Below, one piece after another: positions 5,155 through 31,276 of a stretch of 64,000 nt of DNA. The first letter of the stretch is position 1. Each line of letters starts with the position of its first letter. The notes beneath the pieces were generated by a model. The model saw only the letters and a program-made list of their open reading frames with translations, did not search any database and had not been told where the DNA came from. Source of the DNA: Methanobacteriota archaeon (GTDB lineage: Archaea; Thermoplasmatota; Thermoplasmata; Methanomassiliicoccales; Methanomethylophilaceae); contig JAEXCH010000010.1 in NCBI GenBank assembly GCA_023402275.1, positions 3,842 through 67,841 of the forward strand, given 5' to 3'. A program made the position numbers and the translations under genes.

Positions 5155-5793
5155 TTGAAGATAGTAAAGTGCGATTTAGCGAAAGGGTTCACCGAGAACT
5201 GTGCGAATGCGGTTGCTGATATAGCCGAGGAAGTGGCTTCAGGCAATCTTATAGTGTATCCTACCGAAACTGTATACGGGATAGGAGCGGACATATTCAA
5301 CGAGGTCGCTGTTAAGAATCTGTTCCTTGCAAAGAACAGACCTTTCGATATGGCACTGTCCGTAGCTGTAAGCGACAGGAAGATGATGGAAAACATCGCA
5401 GTTCTGGATGAGAACGCCGATAAATTGATAGATGCATTCCTACCCGGACCATTGACAATAATAATCGAGAAGAAACCCGACGTCCCGGACCTTGTGACCG
5501 CAATGTCAAAGAAGGTAGGGATAAGGATGCCGGACCATCCGGTTGCAATGGAGATCATAAAGAGAACAGGCCCTATAGTTGCAACATCAGCGAATCTGCA
5601 TTCACATCCCGATGCTACCGATATCGATTCGGCAGTGAAGGACCTGGGGGATGCCGTCAGTATGTATGTTGACGCAGGACCCAGCCCATTGAAGAAACCC
5701 TCGACGATCGTTTGGATAATGAATGGAGAGGTCGAGATAGTCAGACAGGGTGCGATAACGATCAAAGAGATAGAGGATGTCCTCGATGCTTAA
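5155..5793 (+). CDS. tsaC: L-threonylcarbamoyladenylate synthase, YrdC/Sua5 domain only
   Basis: YPTETVYGIGAD, KNRPFDMALSV, PGPLTII, VGIRMPDHP, ATSANLHSHP. At 212 aa it has no Sua5 C-terminal domain. Confidence 0.8.
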   Translation: MKIVKCDLAKGFTENCANAVADIAEEVASGNLIVYPTETVYGIGADIFNEVAVKNLFLAKNRPFDMALSVAVSDRKMMENIAVLDENADKLIDAFLPGPLTIIIEKKPDVPDLVTAMSKKVGIRMPDHPVAMEIIKRTGPIVATSANLHSHPDATDIDSAVKDLGDAVSMYVDAGPSPLKKPSTIVWIMNGEVEIVRQGAITIKEIEDVLDA

Positions 5794-6676
5794 TCCTGAA
5801 GAGTTAACAAAGCTAAGGAAAGCAGGAGAGGTCGCAGCCCAGGCAAGGGATATCGGAATGGACCTTGTGAAAGAAGGTGCGAAACTCTACGATGTTGCTC
5901 AAGAGGTCGAAGGACACATAAGGTCCAAAGGTTGCGGTCTGGCATTCCCATGTAACATAAGCATCAACGAGATCGCAGCACATTATACTCCCTCGGTGAA
6001 CGACACCAAGGTGTTCGAGGTAGGGGATGTCGTAAAGATCGACTGCGGTGCGGAACTGGACGGATATGTAGGGGATACGGCAGGTACGGTCGAGGTTGGA
6101 ACAAGAAGATACCGCGATCTCATAGAAGCATCGAAACGTGCCAGAGATACGGTTGCGGAGTTCGTAGGCGTAGGAACACCTATGGGAGAGATAGGAAGAG
6201 CAGTGGAGATGAGTATCAATCAGGGCGGATTCAAACCCATACAGAATCTCTGCGGCCATCAGATAAAACCATATAATCTGCATGCAGGCGTATCAATACC
6301 CAGTTACTATGATGGGAACACCAACAGATTGACACAGGGGATGATAGTTGCGATAGAACCCTTCGCTACGAACGGTGAGGGAGTGGTCGTCAATGGACCT
6401 CCTGGGAATATTGTAAGGATACTTAGGGAGAGGAAACTCGCAGATCCCAAGGCTCAGGAATTCTTCGAATATGCGAAGGAGGAATTCAAGACCTTCCCGT
6501 TCTGTGCCAGAAGCTGTGATTTCTATGATTCCGAAAAGCACGTCAAGACACTGATAAGGCACGGTGTCCTGTCAAGCTACGCTCAACTCATTGAGGCGAA
6601 GAAAGGCATCGTATCCCAACATGAGCATACGTTCTACATCTCCGGTGAAAGAGCGGAGATCATGACTCTTCCTTGA
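5777..6676 (+). CDS. map: Type 2 methionine aminopeptidase, copy 1
   Basis: AFPCNISINEIAAHYTP, DCGAELDGYVGDTA, CGHQI, EPFATNG, EHTFYI. Overlaps the tsaC 3' end by 17 nt. Confidence 0.9.
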   Translation: MSSMLNPEELTKLRKAGEVAAQARDIGMDLVKEGAKLYDVAQEVEGHIRSKGCGLAFPCNISINEIAAHYTPSVNDTKVFEVGDVVKIDCGAELDGYVGDTAGTVEVGTRRYRDLIEASKRARDTVAEFVGVGTPMGEIGRAVEMSINQGGFKPIQNLCGHQIKPYNLHAGVSIPSYYDGNTNRLTQGMIVAIEPFATNGEGVVVNGPPGNIVRILRERKLADPKAQEFFEYAKEEFKTFPFCARSCDFYDSEKHVKTLIRHGVLSSYAQLIEAKKGIVSQHEHTFYISGERAEIMTLP

Positions 6677-6759: not shown

Positions 6760-7650
6760 ATGCTGAATTCCGAAGAATTGATCAAACTGAGAAAGGCCGG
6801 AGAGGTTGCAGCCCAGGCGAGGGAATTAGGTCTAGGGATGATCAAGGAAGGAGCAAAGCTATACGATGTTGCTCAAGAGGTCGAAGGATACATACGTTCG
6901 AAAGGCTGCGGATTGGCATTCCCATGTAATATCAGCATCAACGAGATCGCAGCTCATTATACCCCTTCTGTGAATGACACCAAGGTCTTTGAGATCGGCG
7001 ACGTTGTCAAACTGGACTGCGGAGCGGAATTGGATGGATTCATTGGAGACACTGCAGGTACTGTCGAAGTGGGAACAAGAAGGTACCGTGAACTGATAGA
7101 GGCATCGAAACGTGCCAGAGATACTGTTGCTGAATTCGTTGGTATCGGAACCCCCATCGGAGAGATCGGAGGTGCGGTGGAGATGAGCATAGCTCAAAGC
7201 GGGTTCAAACCTATAGAGAACCTATGCGGACATCAGATAGAGCAATACAAACTGCATGCAGGGATATCGATCCCTAACTACCATGACGGAAATGATGACA
7301 GACTCAAGGAAGGAATGATCATTGCTGTGGAACCATTCGCAACGAATGGGGAAGGAATAGTCGTGGATGGACCTCCGGGAAACATAGTCAGAATGATAAG
7401 GGAAAAGGAAATCTCTGATCCAAAGGCACAGGAATTCCTTGATTATGTGAAGGATGAATTCAGATCATTCGCATTCTGTGCCAGAAGCTGTGATTTCACG
7501 AATGCCGAGAAGCACGTGAAGACACTGATAAGACATGGGGTGTTGTCAAGTTATTCTCAGATGATCGAGATCAGAAAAGGTATCGTATCCCAACATGAAC
7601 ACACCTTCTATATATCAGGAAAGCGCGCAGAAGTGACAACTCTTCCATAA
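6760..7650 (+). CDS. map: Type 2 methionine aminopeptidase, copy 2 (tandem paralog)
   Basis: Carries the same motifs as copy 1 and is collinear over its whole length, with most positions identical by eye. Confidence 0.9.
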   Translation: MLNSEELIKLRKAGEVAAQARELGLGMIKEGAKLYDVAQEVEGYIRSKGCGLAFPCNISINEIAAHYTPSVNDTKVFEIGDVVKLDCGAELDGFIGDTAGTVEVGTRRYRELIEASKRARDTVAEFVGIGTPIGEIGGAVEMSIAQSGFKPIENLCGHQIEQYKLHAGISIPNYHDGNDDRLKEGMIIAVEPFATNGEGIVVDGPPGNIVRMIREKEISDPKAQEFLDYVKDEFRSFAFCARSCDFTNAEKHVKTLIRHGVLSSYSQMIEIRKGIVSQHEHTFYISGKRAEVTTLP

Positions 7651-7689
7651 AGGTTTATTTATCATTTGATGCTACGAGGTGTAAGCAAA

Positions 7690-7777
7690 GCCGAGGTTGC
7701 CAAGCCTGGTCAAAGGCGATGGACTCAAGATCCATTCTCGTAGGAGTTCACCGGTTCGAATCCGGTCCTCGGCACCA
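7690..7777 (+). tRNA. tRNA-Leu (anticodon CAA), CCA encoded
   Basis: Acceptor GCCGAGG/CCTCGGC; anticodon arm ATGGA-CTCAAGA-TCCAT; long variable arm; T arm ACCGG-TTCGAAT-CCGGT; discriminator A, then CCA at 7775-7777. Confidence 0.9.
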
Positions 7778-8039
7778 TATAATCATCACTGCTCGCTACT
7801 CAAATCTTGTTGTTTCTGTTCGTGGTGGGTGTTATTAAAAGAGGTCGATTTATTGGAAACAACACTTTACAAATTACCGAAATTCACAGTGGAATACGAT
7901 AATATTCCATTAATACAATTTAGTGGAAAGGAATTACCCGCTGTAGTGATTTCCTGAACACGATGAGGGTTTCAAAGAAAAAGAAATCAATAACCTGTGT
8001 TATATTGCAACATTATTAGGATGCTGAGGGGTTAATACA

Positions 8040-9902
8040 ATGAAAGAAGGAGTGTTTTCAACAGGACAGACAAAATCGATATACAAGACAAATGAAACGA
8101 TGCCCTTATCATCCGAACAGCAATTTTTTATTGATAAAGCTCTTGATGGGCATAATATCCTTGTTAATGCTTGTATAGGGAGTGGGAAAACAACAGCCAT
8201 TCAGCGCCTTTGTGACGAATTACCGACAGGGAAAAGAATTCTATATCTAACATACAACAAGCTACTAAAGGTCGATGCTCAATCAAAGATAAAAAATACA
8301 AATGTCAAAGTGAGCAATTACCACGGGTTTGCATTCGGAGTGTTGAAAAAACAAAACATTAATGTCGGCGTATCTGATTTGATTCAGACATTCATAAAAA
8401 AGAAACCAAAATTAGACTGCTATGATGTTTTGATAATTGACGAATATCAAGACATCGAAGAGGAAATTTCGAAATTACTTCTCCACATTAGATCAACAAA
8501 CCCAGCAATGCAGATAATAGCCGTAGGGGACATGGAACAGAAGATCTACGATAAAACCACGTTATCTGTGCCAGAATTCATCGAAGGGTTTTTAGGCGAG
8601 CATATCAAGTTAGAATTTACTCATTGTTTCAGACTATCTCCTGATCTGGCTGCCACGCTCGGCCGGATATGGGGCAAAAGCATCATTGGCGTAAATAAAA
8701 ATTGTATTGTTCAGGAAATGAGCGTTAGCGATGTGATCAAGTTCTTATCGACACAGGACCCGAGTGATATTTTGTGTCTAGGTGCACGGGTAGGAGATCT
8801 CTCTACGGCATTGAATGCGTTAGAGCAAGATTATCCGGACAAATTCAACAAAAAAACTGTATATGCGAGCATATCTGAAAAAGATGGAGTAGGGGCAGTA
8901 CAGCCAAAATCAACATCTGGGATATTTACAACATTTGACAGCAGCAAAGGTCTGGAGCGCAGGATATGTGTTGTATTTGATTTCGTTGAATCATACTGGC
9001 AAGTAAGGATCACCAAGCCAAATCAGTCCTATAAGATACTACGCAACATCTTCTGTGTTGCGGCAAGTCGCGGCAAAGAAAGAATCATATTTGTCACCAG
9101 CGGAGAAGCAAGACTCTCTGAGCAAACATTGTCAACAGACACTTCTCAAAACGATATATTTGATGATGTAGACATTTCAGAAATGTTCGATTTTAAATAC
9201 AAAGAAGATGTGGAAAAATGTTATTCGTTGCTGGACGTCAAGCCACTTACCATACCCGAAAACAGTTCAGAAATTTTGATAACGAACAAGGATGGGTTGA
9301 TCGATCTTTCTCCCTGCATCGGAATATACCAGGAAGCTGTGTTTTTCAAAGATTATGATATCAATAAATCGATTGAATTGTGGCTTGAGATCAACAAAGA
9401 TAAAAAATATCTGTATAGAGAAAGGGATGAAAATCTACCGTTGGACAAAAAGATTCTATTTCTTACTTCGCTTGAAACTTCACAGAATCGTTATCTAAAT
9501 CAAGTTACTACACCTTTTGTAAATGACATTGAAAGACAACGAATTGTTGAAAGATTAGGCTCAACCTTCACTACCGATGAAATTGTGCAATATCCGTGTA
9601 TTATCGATTTTTCAGATAAAAACGGTAAACATCTGTTTTCAGCACAAGGATTTACTGACGTCATAAAAAATGGCATGGTGTATGAATTGAAGTTTGTACA
9701 TGAGTTAACTCACGAACATTTCCTGCAATGTGCTTGTTATGTCGTAGCGTTAGGACTCAAAAAAGGCATTCTTTGGAATGTTCGAACAAACATAAAATAT
9801 GAAATTCAAATATTAAACAAATCTAAATTTCTGGATGCGGTTGCAAAAACGACCACCAAAGGATTTTTGAAGAAATATTATGGGCCAAGGGAGGAAAGAT
9901 AA
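8040..9902 (+). CDS. SF1 (UvrD/Rep-like) helicase fused to a C-terminal PD-(D/E)xK nuclease domain
   Basis: Walker A CIGSGKTT; motif II VLIIDEYQD; motif III VGDMEQKIY; FTHCFRLS; FTTFDSSKGLERRICVVFD; CVAASRGKERIIFV. The C-terminal ~230 aa carry FTDVI...MVYELKF...QCACY, a D..ELK..QxxxY pattern as in RecB/Cas4-type nucleases. The coding sequence is AT-rich. Confidence 0.75.
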   Translation: MKEGVFSTGQTKSIYKTNETMPLSSEQQFFIDKALDGHNILVNACIGSGKTTAIQRLCDELPTGKRILYLTYNKLLKVDAQSKIKNTNVKVSNYHGFAFGVLKKQNINVGVSDLIQTFIKKKPKLDCYDVLIIDEYQDIEEEISKLLLHIRSTNPAMQIIAVGDMEQKIYDKTTLSVPEFIEGFLGEHIKLEFTHCFRLSPDLAATLGRIWGKSIIGVNKNCIVQEMSVSDVIKFLSTQDPSDILCLGARVGDLSTALNALEQDYPDKFNKKTVYASISEKDGVGAVQPKSTSGIFTTFDSSKGLERRICVVFDFVESYWQVRITKPNQSYKILRNIFCVAASRGKERIIFVTSGEARLSEQTLSTDTSQNDIFDDVDISEMFDFKYKEDVEKCYSLLDVKPLTIPENSSEILITNKDGLIDLSPCIGIYQEAVFFKDYDINKSIELWLEINKDKKYLYRERDENLPLDKKILFLTSLETSQNRYLNQVTTPFVNDIERQRIVERLGSTFTTDEIVQYPCIIDFSDKNGKHLFSAQGFTDVIKNGMVYELKFVHELTHEHFLQCACYVVALGLKKGILWNVRTNIKYEIQILNKSKFLDAVAKTTTKGFLKKYYGPREER

Positions 9903-10477
9903 TGACGAATTTTGCTATCATCGACACAGAAACCAATTGGAATGATGTAGTAATGTCAATTGGAGCAGTCATCGCCGATGCTGACACATACCAGCCTTTG
10001 TACTCAAAATACTATATCATAACACCCGAACATAGAGTCGGCGGTATGTTCTCGCATGCTTTGTTTTTAGAAGACGAGATGTTGAATTACGAATGCTCTC
10101 GAAAAAAGGCATTGAGCGATCTAATGACATGCTTCGAAAGCAACGGTGTTACAGATATATTCGCTTACAATGCTTCTTTCGATTATCGTCATTTACCCGA
10201 GCTGTCAGATTTTTGTTGGTATGATATTATGAAACTAGCGGCATACAGACAATTCAATCCGAAGATTCCTTCATACTCAAATTGTCACGGCACGGGAAGA
10301 CTGAAATCTGGCTACGGGGTTGAACCCATCCTGAGGTTACTTAGTGGTGATGTAACGTACTGCGAACAGCATAATGCACTTACCGATGCACTCGATGAAT
10401 TGAAAATAATGGTGCTACTCGAACACGGTTTTGATAGTTATGTAAAAATCAAAAAACGCAAGCATGTGCATGAATGA
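9902..10477 (+). CDS. DnaQ-like DEDDh 3'-5' exonuclease
   Basis: ExoI IIDTETN, ExoII AYNASFDYRHL, ExoIII HNALTDALDE. The start overlaps the helicase stop (TAATG), with GGGAGG about 10 nt upstream. Confidence 0.75.
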   Translation: MTNFAIIDTETNWNDVVMSIGAVIADADTYQPLYSKYYIITPEHRVGGMFSHALFLEDEMLNYECSRKKALSDLMTCFESNGVTDIFAYNASFDYRHLPELSDFCWYDIMKLAAYRQFNPKIPSYSNCHGTGRLKSGYGVEPILRLLSGDVTYCEQHNALTDALDELKIMVLLEHGFDSYVKIKKRKHVHE

Positions 10478-10721
10478 ATGAGGGCGGCACACCTCCGGAT
10501 ATGGTGTCAACTTTATCCGTGTAAAACCATGATAACGAAACAATTCACCTTATTCTTACAAAGTATGCGCGTGTGCGAGTTATAAGAACCTTTAATAAGG
10601 ATGATACAATCCTCGCAGTTACGTAAACTCAGGACCCGTCTAGTACGAACACTGAGAGCGCATCCGGAAGGACACGCGCTTGAGCACATCCCCTCGGGGA
10701 ACATTTACGGAGGAATTGAAA

Positions 10722-11198
10722 ATGGCTAAGGCAAAGAAAGAAGCGCCTGATGCAGTCGATGAGAACTTCAACTACATCGTCCGTATCGCAAGCAGCGATA
10801 TCGACGGTCAGAAGAGAACTGTCATCGGACTCCAGAGCATCAAAGGCGTAGGAAAGAGGGTCTCGCAGATCATCGCTAAGAAAGCGGATATTGACCCAAC
10901 AGTGAAGATAGGAACACTTTCGGATGAGAAGGTCAAGGAGATCGAAGCCCTTGTGACATCATATGTTGAATATGCCCCGCACTGGGCCATCAACAGGCAG
11001 ATGGATTACGAGACAGGTGCGGACATGCACCTGATCGGTAATGATCTCGAGATCATCCAGAAAGAGGATATCAACAGAATGAAGATGATCCGCTGTTACC
11101 GCGGAATCAGGCACGAGACACGCCACAAGGTCAGAGGACAGAGGACCCGTTCCAACGGAAGGAAGGGACTGACCATCGGTGTCCAGAGGAAATCCTGA
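10722..11198 (+). CDS. rps13: 30S ribosomal protein S13 (uS13)
   Basis: GVGKRVSQII and the C-terminal RGIRHETRHKVRGQRTRSNGRKG. ATG at 10722 is preceded by GGAGG, which I prefer to the TTG at 10680 in the ORF track. Confidence 0.9.
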   Translation: MAKAKKEAPDAVDENFNYIVRIASSDIDGQKRTVIGLQSIKGVGKRVSQIIAKKADIDPTVKIGTLSDEKVKEIEALVTSYVEYAPHWAINRQMDYETGADMHLIGNDLEIIQKEDINRMKMIRCYRGIRHETRHKVRGQRTRSNGRKGLTIGVQRKS

Positions 11199-27661: not shown

Positions 27662-28108
27662 TTGTTGCGGATAATGGGTGCGGCCGTTATACCTGAGTAC
27701 AGTTGTAGGAAGGACAATCACATTTTCTTATATCAACAGAAGATGACTTTGCTGGTATTGAGGCAGGAAGAATCGGTATCGTATGAGAGATTCTGTGAGA
27801 AACTGGACTCTTATCCCGTGATGATCGAATTGTTGGGTCTGGAGCGTGTCCCTCATCCTGCCACCTTATCGAAATTCTCCAGTATAATTGAACATGAATA
27901 TCTTGATCTTGTTATTACGTGTTTCTATCTCGCCGTAAGGAATGAGGGGCCGATAGCATCATTGGACAGCACAGGACTGTCCGTTTCGTCAGCTTCCAAA
28001 CACATTCTTAGGAGAATTAAACAAATTGGATCATCTACCGATGAAAAGACATCCGTAGTAAGAGGGTTCGTAAAGCATCCTTTATTTGTGAGGTCGAGAC
28101 CAACATGA
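27662..28108 (+). CDS. IS5-like DDE transposase, N-terminal part (first catalytic D)
   Basis: HPATLSKF helix-turn-helix-like region and DSTGLSV. Confidence 0.65.
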   Translation: MLRIMGAAVIPEYSCRKDNHIFLYQQKMTLLVLRQEESVSYERFCEKLDSYPVMIELLGLERVPHPATLSKFSSIIEHEYLDLVITCFYLAVRNEGPIASLDSTGLSVSSASKHILRRIKQIGSSTDEKTSVVRGFVKHPLFVRSRPT

Positions 28109-28566
28109 TACTGTCTGCGGACCTACTGACGAAGAGTGTTCATGATATCATGATCGGAAAGAGAACGGTGGAAAGACTGTCATCAGCGGATATGAGAGTA
28201 TCATATCTGACCGCAGACAAAGAGTATGATTCCGAAGGGTTCTACATAATTGTGAAAGAATGTCTGGGTGATGTGTCCCTCATACCACCCAGGAATACGG
28301 CTGAGAGAAAACATGACAACGAAATAAGAAGGACGAAAGAAAAGAGCAGATCGGGATCAAAATGTATGCCTGGTGATCTCCTGTACAAGAACATCTATCA
28401 CAAATGGGACAACTCAGAAAGTACCAACTTATCCTTCAAGCGCATATTTGGAGAGAATATACTCTCACATAAGGAGCACTCGAAATGCTCAGAGGCATTG
28501 TTCAGAGTGATAGCGTATAACTTGGAACATGTGGATAGATTAGGGTTCACAGGGGAATTCACCTGA
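28105..28566 (+). CDS. IS5-like DDE transposase, C-terminal part (second D and E)
   Basis: LTADKEYDSEGF and a distal E region. It lies in the -1 frame relative to 27662..28108, and this frame is already open and homologous from about 28089. Confidence 0.65.
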   Translation: MILSADLLTKSVHDIMIGKRTVERLSSADMRVSYLTADKEYDSEGFYIIVKECLGDVSLIPPRNTAERKHDNEIRRTKEKSRSGSKCMPGDLLYKNIYHKWDNSESTNLSFKRIFGENILSHKEHSKCSEALFRVIAYNLEHVDRLGFTGEFT

Positions 28567-28596
28567 GGGATGGTTTCATAGAAGCCGAGTTAATAT

Positions 28597-29640
28597 GCTT
28601 TGGTGAAACCATGAACAAAGATTAACCTCCCGCTGTTCATTTCACTCCCGGACGGCTGCTCCGTTAGAAAGAATGGCCGCCCAAGGATGGGATTGGCGTG
28701 CGCAGTAGGAGGGTAACCTCCAGACAAGATAGATTGGCCTCCATTATTAAGGCCACGTCCTCTGTCTTGGAGGGATTGGGTGTTCCGAGGTATTCCTCGG
28801 AATTCAGTAATCGATTGTATGATGTCCATTTGAAGATAGGATGGTTGATAATAAGACAACATCTGGACGTCTCTTTCAGAGAGTTGTGTTCCATACTTCC
28901 TTCGCTGAGGGTATGTAGAGGCCGGATACCAAATCATTCCACGCTGGTGAAGTTCTCTCAAGGGGCGGATGCGAAGTCGATGGATAAGGTGCTGCAGGCA
29001 CTGGCGCATATGCTGTGTTGAACAGAGATGATCATAGCCACGGATGCGACAGGATTCTTGTGTTTCAATGCTTCAAGACATTTCATAAAGATATTGAATG
29101 AAATGCGGTTCCGGTATAACGTGTAAGAGCAACATAATGGGGGATTCTCCAAGGCATCGTTCGCCGTTGACACGGAAACGAAGATGATATTTGGCTTGTG
29201 ATTGTGTGGATCCGCCAATGCCGATGTGAAGAGGATAACGTTCCTGATAGACGATCCGGTCAAGGAGAGATTCGATGTCGCTCACGTGGTCGCCGATAAA
29301 GGATATGATGCGGAATATGTTCATGTTGACATCCATGATAGACTGAATATGGAGGCATTCATTCCTGTGAGGAAGATAGAACCGGCGAGTATGGAGACCT
29401 CCAGAGTAAAGACCTCAGGATTTAACAGAGGGAGAATGAAGTTCTTCTTCGACAAAGAAACATACAACCGAAGATCGCAGGTGGAAACAGTCGTTCCATG
29501 GTCAAGCGTAAGATGAGAGACACAGTCTACAGAATATGTGGGGCTTCCAAACACAAGGGGGCCCTGTTCAGATGCATAGCTCACAATATCAGGAGACTCA
29601 TGGGTGCAGGTCATTCATTATAATATGGTTTTACCAGAGC
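28597..29640 (+). mobile_element. IS5-like insertion sequence, copy 2 (decayed), in tandem with copy 1
   Basis: gcttggtgaaaccat (28597-28612) versus the reverse complement of 29625-29640 (gctctggtaaaaccat). The leader is similar to copy 1 (catttcac..cc..gg.cgg ... ccaaggatggga..ggcgtg). Confidence 0.6.
28698..29516 (+). pseudogene. IS5-like DDE transposase pseudogene
   Basis: A single reading frame carries IATDATGF, VVADKGYDAEY and YNRRSQVETV. It is interrupted by three in-frame stops: TGA at 29019 (coordinate checked), then TAA and TGA further downstream (read by eye), and it ends prematurely. Confidence 0.7.
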
Positions 29641-29686
29641 ATTATTTCGGTCAAACCATTAATAGGGGGATGTACGATATACCTCT

Positions 29687-30070
29687 ATGGCAGTTATGGC
29701 GGGAAGGAATCTGATACTTTTGGATATCGCAGGGATGTTAATACTGGCGGTAGGAGCCTTGAGCATTAGTGGTCTGATCCCTATTCCGAATGCCCTTGCG
29801 ATCTTGATCATGATAATTGGCATGATGATGATCGCAATGTCCTCGTTGTTCATACATCTCTATGGATCCAAAATAAGGAAACAACATAACGAATTCGTAA
29901 GATTCGACAAGGTCAGGAGCGAGGCCAGACTAGTTCCGAATGATCTCGATGAAGGATACATCATCGATTATACCGCAGATCTTGAGAATGCCATAATTTA
30001 CACAAAAAATAGGCTGCATATTGAAGATGAAGATATACAAATCGAACCGATATATAAAGAGATAAATTGA
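29687..30070 (+). CDS. Small membrane protein (2-3 TM helices plus a ~60 aa soluble tail)
   Basis: Hydrophobic N-terminal half (LILLDIAGMLILAVGALSISGLIPIPNALAILIMIIGMMMIAMSSLFI). AT-rich. Ends 18 nt upstream of the HD gene. Confidence 0.5.
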   Translation: MAVMAGRNLILLDIAGMLILAVGALSISGLIPIPNALAILIMIIGMMMIAMSSLFIHLYGSKIRKQHNEFVRFDKVRSEARLVPNDLDEGYIIDYTADLENAIIYTKNRLHIEDEDIQIEPIYKEIN

Positions 30071-30088
30071 ATACAAAATGGTGAAAAG

Positions 30089-31276
30089 ATGTCAAAAGAA
30101 AAAAAAGCACTCAATGCCAACATTCTGTATCTCATGTTCGATACTGCGAATATGCACAGATGGAACGATCACCTAAGAACTATAGATCTTACAGAACTAG
30201 ATAAACAGGCACATAAGGCTGCTATAGCATGGGTCATTGGCAAGTATGAGGAAACAGAGGGAGGTTCAAGTGTAGATTGGACAAAAATAATTGAAAATTC
30301 TCTTTTTTCATTCATACAGAGGTCTGTATTAACTGATTTAAAACCTCAGGTTTTCCACAGAGTCATATCGGAAAAATCCGATGAGGTCAATAAATATGTG
30401 ATGGAAACATTTGACAAGTTCGTACCTGACTCTGATCCAAATTTCAGAAACAGACTTCAAAGATATCTGCGGTCTGATAAAAAATCAAAAGAAGATGACA
30501 TAATCAGTGCGGCACACTATCTGGCAACAAAATGGGAATTTGATGCAATATATGATGCTAACCGCTCCAGGTATGGAATAGAGGAGACAAAGAAGAAAGT
30601 ATATCTTCAAACCAACCAACACAAGGATCTTGCAGGTGTGAAAGAAATATTGTGCAATCAGCTTACATTTGGGTTCATAGATCTGATTGGGCAGCTAAGG
30701 TTCCAGCAAAGATGGGCAAGGACTCCTAGAATACCAAAAACAACTGTCCTGGGTCATTCACTACTGGTTGCTAACATGATATACTTGTGTGATGTTGATA
30801 GAAATGCATCTGACAGACAGATATACACCAACTACTACACAGCATTATTCCACGATCTCCCAGAAGTTCTGACCAAAGATGTTATAAGTCCAATAAAAGA
30901 GAATGTCGCAGGGTTGGCTGAACTCCTTGAATCGTATGAGAGGGAGTTGGTAGAATTGGAGATCATGCCACTGGTACCAGAAGCCTGGCAGAAAGAACTC
31001 AGGACGATGGTCCTTGAACCATTTGAGGGAGTAGAGGATGAAGCATTCCGAGAAAGAACGGGACCCGATATAAAATCCTGTGATATGATGGCTGCATACA
31101 TAGAAGCCAAAGCATCTGTATATTACGGCATATCATCGCGACCACTTGTAGATGGGATAATAAATCTCAAAAAGAATCTTAAAGAGAGAGGAACCAACAT
31201 CGGTGCGAAAGAGCTATTGGAAGATTTGGACGAACTCCTTGATTCTGATGAGTTGATCATTGATTGTTTTAATTAA
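30089..31276 (+). CDS. HD-domain phosphohydrolase, YfbR-like, apparently duplicated (degenerate N-terminal copy plus intact C-terminal copy)
   Basis: C-terminal half: QQRWARTPRIPKTTVLGHSLLVANMIY ... ALFHDLPEVLTKDV (H...HD...D). N-terminal half: an RWNDHLR...ELDKQAHKAA segment lacking the HD dyad. AT-rich coding sequence. Confidence 0.65.
   Translation: MSKEKKALNANILYLMFDTANMHRWNDHLRTIDLTELDKQAHKAAIAWVIGKYEETEGGSSVDWTKIIENSLFSFIQRSVLTDLKPQVFHRVISEKSDEVNKYVMETFDKFVPDSDPNFRNRLQRYLRSDKKSKEDDIISAAHYLATKWEFDAIYDANRSRYGIEETKKKVYLQTNQHKDLAGVKEILCNQLTFGFIDLIGQLRFQQRWARTPRIPKTTVLGHSLLVANMIYLCDVDRNASDRQIYTNYYTALFHDLPEVLTKDVISPIKENVAGLAELLESYERELVELEIMPLVPEAWQKELRTMVLEPFEGVEDEAFRERTGPDIKSCDMMAAYIEAKASVYYGISSRPLVDGIINLKKNLKERGTNIGAKELLEDLDELLDSDELIIDCFN

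Follow-up and report, generated by a model that had tools for sequence, protein, structure and literature searches.

AddA and RecB each carry, C-terminal to a UvrD-type motor of helicase superfamily 1A (SF1A), a PD-(D/E)xK nuclease in the same polypeptide, and RecBCD also bars linear phage DNA. Gabija combines a UvrD-family helicase with nuclease activity; Nhi, Hna, DdmD, ZorD and Hachiman HamAB couple a helicase to a nuclease and degrade invader DNA without a modification system; and WRN and S. aureus DinG join a helicase to a DnaQ-like 3'-5' exonuclease. In the UvrD-Cas4-like fusions, a UvrD-like superfamily 1 (SF1) helicase is linked to a Cas4/RecB-like nuclease; these proteins occur in bacteria and mesophilic archaea, stand alone or lie in non-conserved contexts, often near restriction systems, and were predicted to be ancillary to defense (Hudaiberdiev et al. 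2017, PMC5704561). Here, we analyzed a pair of overlapping genes in a stretch of 64,000 nucleotides from an archaeon (GenBank assembly GCA_023402275.1, contig JAEXCH010000010.1, positions 3,842 to 67,841 of the forward strand; hereafter the window), whose host is placed in the Methanomethylophilaceae, its S11 cluster being named Candidatus Methanomethylophilaceae by its sources. The pair is predicted to encode an SF1 UvrD-type helicase and a PD-(D/E)xK (RecB/Cas4-like) nuclease on one chain, with a DEDDh exonuclease from the coupled gene, and very probably forms a functional module in which three activities process DNA. In its presumed mode of action, it resembles AddA/RecB and the helicase-nuclease immune effectors while being a member of none.

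Relation to described systems

The helicase-nuclease shares the architecture of AddA and RecB, and ATP-driven unwinding and degradation starting from DNA ends would be expected of it. However, it is half their size, no AddB or RecC/RecD partner lies in the small islet that carries the pair, and a DEDDh 3'-5' exonuclease takes the place of a second RecB-type domain. Membership in AddAB/RecBCD was rejected, as the protein scored 22.4 bits against a cut-off of 707.65 for TIGR02785 and the islet holds no partner gene. To our knowledge, no Chi-type regulation exists for this module.

Neither PADLOC-DB 2.0.0 nor our literature searches yielded a named system with a helicase, a DEDDh enzyme and a PD-(D/E)xK nuclease, in agreement with an earlier note on this DNA, which had matched the pair to no system. 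The 25 best of 36 PADLOC matches were all GajB-type, RTasHel, C3a187 or RecD. GajB profiles, the best of them, covered only ~50-100 residues of the N-terminal ATPase region, the window nucleases are of folds other than the OLD/TOPRIM fold of GajA, and no GajA/OLD/TOPRIM gene was present in the islet, so that Gabija was rejected. Hachiman, Nhi and Hna were discarded in the same way: together with DdmD and ZorD, they rely on other helicase classes and domain orders, none of them appeared among the 25 best matches, and the islet lacks a HamA-like (DUF1837) gene. We know of no obligatory DEDDh exonuclease partner for Nhi, Hna, DdmD, ZorD or HamAB.

The UvrD-Cas4-like family is defined by PF12705 (PDDEXK_1), has members of ~970 aa, one of which lies in another locus (L193), and has no described DEDDh partner; the window protein matches PDDEXK_3, not PF12705, and was therefore not assigned to it. 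WRN and S. aureus DinG, in turn, belong to the SF2 helicases, have their exonuclease at the N-terminus and lack a PD-(D/E)xK domain; the resemblance is one of logic, not of ancestry. In a viral structure library, the best whole-chain matches were giant-virus 'helicase/exonuclease' proteins (Faunusvirus, Fadolivirus, Pithovirus and Moumouvirus; template modeling (TM) score of 0.61-0.70 on the query). These also carry a UvrD-like helicase and a C-terminal nuclease, but they share only 14-15% identity, span ~1000-1100 aa and belong to eukaryotic viruses; no DEDDh partner is known to us for them. Where sources name members of the family informatively, they use only 'AAA family ATPase' or 'hypothetical protein'.

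Three predicted activities from two overlapping genes

The two coupled genes are laid out as the earlier note had described them (Table 1). The last A of the helicase stop codon TAA (9900-9902) is shared with the ATG of the exonuclease (9902-9904), giving a TAATG overlap preceded by a GGGAGG, and the three domains read by eye in that note are supported by Pfam, alignments, AlphaFold and Foldseek. In the helicase, motifs, Pfam and Foldseek revealed the SF1A arrangement of motifs I, II, III, V and VI in order on two RecA-like domains, with Pfam matches to AAA_19 (4e-13) and UvrD-helicase (1.7e-7). An alignment of 25 homologues showed GSGKTT (47-52), DEYQD (134-138), GDMEQKIY (163-170), the motif V-like FTTxDSSKGxE (296-306) and VAASRGK (340-346) to be nearly or fully invariant. 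The AlphaFold model of the helicase-nuclease (predicted local distance difference test (pLDDT) 84.3; predicted TM score 0.81) resembled PcrA, UvrD and Rep best among PDB folds, at a TM score of ~0.4 (Foldseek), and the SF1B proteins RecD2 and Upf1 scored similarly to UvrD; 3'-5' polarity may be assumed from the SF1A-type motif III only. A PDB sequence-profile search gave human FBH1 as the best match (4e-7) and HrpA as a weak one, and PHROG 1967 'DNA helicase' matched in part (3e-29). The UvrD-like label is thus right for the motifs and Pfam families, while the motor, with a core of ~350 aa, is compact and far from any solved helicase.

In the C-terminal nuclease domain, D540, E549-L-K551 and Q563xxxY567 are invariant across the same 25 homologues, and these catalytic residues together with a predicted alpha-beta-beta-beta-alpha-beta core at 519-605 (strands 519-551, helix 558-570, strands 575-591) identify it as a PD-(D/E)xK nuclease. 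When the C-terminal domain was searched alone, PDDEXK_3 matched in 12 of 12 family members (best 3.9e-7), with 24 bits against a cut-off of 22 for the window domain. The domain did not qualify as a Cas4/AddB-type nuclease: there was no PF12705 match, and PF01930 (Cas_Cas4) gave weak matches in four of the 12 members (E of at least 0.03). A PDB profile search of the domain returned nothing relevant.

The exonuclease carries the DEDDh signature D8-T-E10, N90-A-x-F-D94 and H157-x4-D162 on an RNase H-like fold, with D8, E10, D94, H157 and D162 invariant across its homologues. Its structural model, which is confident (pLDDT 91.2), matched 3'hExo/ERI1, ERI3, CRN-4, the exonuclease domain of S. aureus DinG, RNase T and ExoI in the PDB (Foldseek; E of 3e-6 to 1e-4 for 3'hExo, ERI3, CRN-4, RNase T and ExoI), and the PADLOC 'DEDDh' profile matched at 3.7e-9. 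Since Pfam RNase_T did not match the window exonuclease, it represents a separate family within the DEDDh superfamily; a PDB sequence-profile search gave marginal PolC/ExoX matches only.

The two genes behave as one unit

Scanning 185,579 species genomes (one genome per species) yielded 202 with a relative of the helicase-nuclease, and the loci of the best 80 were inspected for the exonuclease. The earlier note had left it to be seen whether the two genes co-occur elsewhere, and they do: the exonuclease was adjacent or fused in 61 of the 80 loci. In 33 it forms an in-frame C-terminal fusion with the helicase-nuclease, in 18 it is encoded by a separate gene directly downstream and in ten by one directly upstream, and in 19 it is absent within 10 kb. 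Fusion proteins were confirmed by direct reading (P0096, P0089, P0053 and P0094). In addition, divergent relatives (P0267, P0343 and P0387) bear a different DEDDh family (Pfam RNase_T, PF00929) at the N-terminus; over 640 residues, P0343 and the window helicase-nuclease share 43% identity, and BLASTP found no similarity between the exonuclease of P0343 and that of the window. As both the families and the fused ends differ, a 3'-5' exonuclease was recruited at least twice, and this repeated recruitment suggests that the helicase-nuclease depends on an enzyme of this kind. There is no conserved third gene; the commonest other neighbor cluster is present in eight of the 80 loci. Taken together, these arrangements indicate a strong functional link between the helicase-nuclease and the DEDDh exonuclease, which we regard as an obligatory partner, and the exonuclease protein is probably bound to the helicase-nuclease in a physical complex.

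The exonuclease family was also found without the helicase, in one case after a Fic gene in a deltaproteobacterial metagenome-assembled genome. In another locus (L193 8001-8600; GCA_023390115.1, contig JAEWDM010000022.1), a GmrSD gene is overlapped at its end by a family member of 58% identity, within a same-strand run that also encodes Dcm, Vsr, type III Mod and Res and a UvrD-PDDEXK_1 protein, and the window helicase family is absent. From this context, the exonuclease may be a module common to different defense operons.

Several members depart from the basic layout. In a number of split versions (L004 5702-5753 and the loci of P0002, P0013, P0045 and P0059), the helicase open reading frame (ORF) continues for ~50 nt past the homologous part and, in a different frame, into the start of the exonuclease gene, with a common 'WRxLQ...' tail; a frameshift at this overlap would give the fused form. 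Extra parts are varied among members P0370, P0263, P0085/P0089, P0007 and P0094, comprising an intein (LAGLIDADG + Hint) within the helicase of P0370, a C-terminal DUF6273 in P0263, a Tudor domain of PcrA/UvrD type, an N-terminal segment of P0007 named calcineurin-like phosphoesterase by its source, and a C-terminal HTH_17 with a transmembrane tail.

A bacterial cassette at an archaeal hotspot

Archaeal genes flank the islet (rps13, rps4, rps11, rpoD and the DNA polymerase II large subunit). The earlier note's picture of an AT-rich, tRNA-adjacent islet was borne out: G+C content is 0.38 overall (0.36-0.39 across 8-10 kb) against 0.478 for the window, the ORF list and locus comparison showed no gene in the inserted segment beyond the pair, and specifically no replication, capsid, integrase or partition gene was present in the islet. 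Third-position G+C (GC3) is 0.37-0.41 in the pair against 0.56-0.64 in the adjacent ribosomal-protein and rpoD genes.

To place the insertion, we collected 80 related archaeal loci via rps13. They keep the gene order map, tRNA-Leu(CAA), rps13, with tRNAs 91-99% identical to that of the window. The spacer between tRNA and rps13, 2944 nt in the window, is empty (150-280 nt) in at least 20 of the 80 and holds 0.4-4.3 kb of unrelated cargo in ~17; none of the 80 has the helicase or the exonuclease at this site. In one relative (L121), the tRNA is followed by a 26-nt gap and then by sequence 90% identical to window 10580-10716, which sets the extent of the insertion at ~7780-10575. Both junctions recur in three independent assemblies (L003, L104 and L105), so the islet is no assembly artefact, and identical proteins occur in several independent samples of the archaeal lineage. 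Around the islet, a search for att-type direct repeats of the tRNA 3' end found short chance repeats only. Non-coding flanks are not conserved with bacterial loci, where DNA homology is confined to the coding region (window 8104-10449, 65-73% identity), and consequently no element ends can be defined.

Cargo in the spacers of relatives, as matched by Pfam, includes ATPase_2/DUF234, a Schlafen-AlbA_2 + DUF6994 + YqaJ trio, Bro-N and an Amt-family transporter, with further MATE-type efflux, CrcB-like and PEBP-like ORFs read by eye only; no integrase was seen in the spacers of L109-L188. The spacer is thus a general variable hotspot across the Methanomethylophilaceae and not a pure defense island.

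The table collects the features of the locus.

Table 1. Features of the islet and its borders, with positions counted in the window.
Feature	Position	Strand	Basis
tRNA-Leu(CAA), left border of insertion site	7690..7777	+	ARAGORN; Rfam tRNA, 54.7 bits
Inserted AT-rich islet, ~2.8 kb, two genes only	7780..10575	.	G+C content and comparison with relatives
GAGGGG, possible ribosome-binding site, 8 nt before helicase ATG	8026..8031	+	Read from sequence; putative
Helicase-nuclease gene, 620 aa	8040..9902	+	ORF, intact
SF1 UvrD-like helicase core, aa 23-375	8106..9164	+	Pfam, invariant motifs, Foldseek
Walker A	8178-8195	+	
Walker B (DEYQD)	8439-8453	+	
Motif III (GDMEQKIY)	8526-8549	+	
C-terminal helical region and PD-(D/E)xK nuclease, aa 380-612	9177..9875	+	PDDEXK_3, invariant residues, predicted core
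D540	9657-9659	+	
E549-L-K551	9684-9692	+	
Q563xxxY567	9726-9740	+	
GGGAGG, ribosome-binding site for exonuclease, inside helicase gene end	9889..9894	+	Read from sequence
DEDDh 3'-5' exonuclease gene, 191 aa	9902..10477	+	ORF, DEDDh residues, fold matches, PADLOC profile
ExoI (D8, E10)	9923-9931	+	
ExoII (D94)	10181-10183	+	
ExoIII (H157-D162)	10370-10387	+	
Putative host rps13 leader/promoter region, right border, outside module	10580..10716	+	85-90% identity to rps13 upstream region in L111, L121, L122 and L123

A profile search of 1.84 billion representatives gave 314 clusters (50% identity) at E<=1e-30, and ~1925 homologues of the helicase-nuclease are detectable. The best 80 of the 202 genome matches are all Clostridia (Oscillospiraceae, Lachnospiraceae, Christensenellaceae and Ruminococcus; 59-75% identity), identifying the pair as a bacterial import. 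The earlier note, which had spoken of a logic new for archaea, needs correction here: the pair is a Clostridia-type cassette in one archaeal lineage and no archaeal invention. It came from gut Clostridia, with Oscillospiraceae-like donors, and the window holds the only archaeal instance found in the species scan and the 80 related loci. The module is also AT-richer than the distal flanks in 61 of 70 bacterial loci (median 5 points, up to 27), so that it looks foreign in most of its hosts and not in the archaeon alone.

A bacterial cassette that still has its bacterial-like GC3, for which no archaeal promoter was shown and whose sole archaeal instance is this lineage, might be a silent or decaying passenger here, unexpressed and nonfunctional, which would be compatible with any of the other readings. 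Both ORFs, however, are full length and keep every invariant family residue, the gene overlap and ribosome-binding sites are intact, and the proteins recur unchanged in the independent samples mentioned above. We consider a dead passenger very unlikely.

Three observations concern the surroundings of the islet. The right border (~137 nt) is non-coding yet 85-90% identical across loci of other species; Rfam gave no match to it, the tRNA being the sole Rfam match in 7500-10900, and it could be a conserved promoter plus ribosomal-protein operon leader. Just upstream of the tRNA lie tandem methionine aminopeptidase (Peptidase_M24) genes (window 5777-6676 and 6760-7650), whereas related Methanomethylophilaceae loci have a single copy there, to which the first window copy is closer (72-83% vs 70-79%). 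A second low-GC patch (window 28100-31276; 0.384 at 30-31 kb) encodes a 395-aa YfbR-like HD-domain protein (30089-31276) and a 127-aa membrane protein (29687-30070), adjoined by several broken transposase-like ORFs at 28.1-29.6 kb.

Mobility

The closest metagenomic relative (75% identity) has bacterial surroundings, with PemK, a sigma-like gene and large serine recombinases as neighbors, and the P0110 copy moves between different chromosomal sites together with an integrase, an excisionase-like helix-turn-helix (HTH) gene, Gabija and an MmeI-type enzyme. Two full-length relatives (~37% identity) sit beside a topoisomerase on mobilizable plasmids of Rhodococcus and Gordonia. They belong to the three matches among 72,556 plasmid records, which are all actinobacterial. 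In IMG/VR, a first scan found two loci among 2.9 million viral contigs, and a second scan with the exonuclease added several others; the few viral-contig copies adjoin helicase or restriction-like genes or sit inside large elements.

Together with the partial match to PHROG 1967, these cases raise the question of whether the genes serve mobile elements as such, carried by prophages, large plasmids or integrative or conjugative elements to help in establishment, inter-element competition or counter-defense, for instance through degradation of the DNA ends of rivals or of the host. The same searches speak against it: tblastn found no match in 50,697 phage records, plasmid and viral hits are as rare as given above, and no mobile-element gene lies near the window copy or near several of the bacterial ones. 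Such cargo is, moreover, usually defense anyway, which makes this explanation overlap with an immune role. On its own, we regard it as quite improbable. A provirus or plasmid replication module was rejected, as primase, polymerase, capsid or partition genes are not conserved neighbors; the phage, plasmid and neighborhood searches thus removed a concern that the earlier note had itself raised. The module is best read as a horizontally mobile, self-contained DNA-processing unit. The comparative evidence is unusually clear on two points, the three-part unit and the transfer from a bacterium to an archaeon at a defined hotspot.

The largest viral contigs deserve separate mention. On IMG/VR contigs of 131-146 kb (L010/L011 and L198), the helicase-nucleases are 50-54% identical to that of the window, and the other visible genes encode lipoproteins, an RNA ligase and a macro-like domain. 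L010/L011 carry a separate canonical DnaQ-type exonuclease ~2.4 kb downstream of the helicase-nuclease, and L198 has a 36%-identical member of the window exonuclease family just upstream of the helicase. These elements may be jumbo phages or megaplasmids.

Gene neighborhoods and the case for immunity

The earlier note had proposed that the pair is a defense module. This part of its reading stays a hypothesis, with defense genes directly adjoining relatives in several independent loci on the one side, and no clear local enrichment and many housekeeping loci on the other. Gabija directly adjoins exonuclease-less relatives in two independent loci, and a true, separate GajB is present in the Gabija-adjacent loci. 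Elsewhere, the module directly adjoins genes for a CHAT-TPR protein, a TOTE-system primase-helicase (AEP), a type I HsdR and a REase_MTES_1575 helicase. In one variant of the P0089 locus, the neighbors form a set of Schlafen/Fic, RecQ and PAPS-reductase + SMC, and a further copy, at the predicted end of a prophage, has a restriction-endonuclease-like gene as its neighbor.

For a more global assessment, we scored 148 non-redundant genes at positions +-1 and +-2 against PADLOC, with 148 genes at least 6 kb away in the same loci as control. Strong matches among the neighbors within +-2 comprised REase_I, mREase_IV, HamB, AbiEii, dGTPase, DrmD, PDC-S41 and HEC-01B.

Several results weigh against a role in immunity. 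The distal control matched 120 PADLOC families against 142 for the near set, and its matches included Cas1/Cas7, RmrA and NsnA; as the control nearly equals the near set, no clear local enrichment of defense genes emerged. Several well-sampled loci are of a housekeeping kind, with cobalamin genes and fpg, sporulation genes and phoH, or glycolysis genes; fpg lies directly downstream in L004, and recQ is nearby in L102. The sequences are strongly conserved for an immune gene (60-75% between bacterial families, the archaeon included), and 19 of the 80 loci do without the exonuclease. Finally, a PcrA/UvrD-type Tudor domain (PF21196) forms the C-terminus of some relatives. Such ends fit a coupling to host transcription or repair, and this domain type is known to bind RNA polymerase.

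With the exception of the exonuclease-less loci, these observations also speak for an accessory repair or recombination machine, that is, of a minimal AddAB/RecBCD-like unit for end resection or fork processing that hosts acquired for the maintenance of their own chromosome. Its AddA/RecB-like pairing of helicase and RecB-type nuclease and its best PDB folds, PcrA, UvrD and Rep, would fit such a machine as well. The distribution of the family does not: with 202 matches among 185,579 species genomes it is patchy, the neighborhood is never conserved, the module is AT-rich and foreign-looking in most hosts and absent from 80 of 80 related archaeal loci, and it recurs close to restriction, Gabija and other conflict systems and to recombinases. 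The AddA equivalog model, in addition, reached 22 bits against a cut-off of 708. Host repair as the main function is, on these grounds, unlikely.

The pair is best read as an end-dependent DNA-degrading module, and we put the probability that immunity is its main role at roughly 50%. A defense role is accordingly presented as a plausible and reasonable hypothesis and not as a result.

Proposed mechanism and implications

In the mechanism that we infer, including the physical complex, its polarity, its substrates and its role in defense, the complex would load at a free DNA end or nick, where the UvrD-type motor would unwind the duplex. The PD-(D/E)xK domain would cut one of the unwound strands, as in AddA or RecB, and the DEDDh enzyme would strip 3'-ended strands and fragments, so that linear DNA would be destroyed processively, as with RecBCD/AddAB. 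The outcome would be a sequence-independent, end-dependent innate immunity against viruses or plasmids that spares the circular host chromosome, with injected viral genomes or plasmid intermediates as targets. As there is no methylase or other self-marking partner, the choice between self and non-self would rest on free DNA ends.

A more specific proposal, which we advance tentatively and with some doubt, is that the pair represents an unnamed three-enzyme immune system, split or fused, which spreads among gut Clostridia as a bare cassette of 2.5 kb and has reached a methanogen. There it would act as a portable RecBCD substitute in a host domain that lacks RecBCD/AddAB, destroying invading linear DNA from its ends without a modification partner.

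If the pair serves immunity, it would add a compact helicase-plus-two-nucleases design to the catalogue of defense systems and provide a clear case of a bacterial defense cassette entering a gut methanogen at the tRNA-Leu/rps13 hotspot, informing how archaea in dense bacterial communities gain defense. Should it turn out to act in repair, it would be of practical and evolutionary interest as a minimal AddAB-like resection machine. The repeated recruitment of DEDDh exonucleases points to a mechanistic need, and either way, these proteins constitute an uncharacterized family of ~300 clusters at 50% identity.

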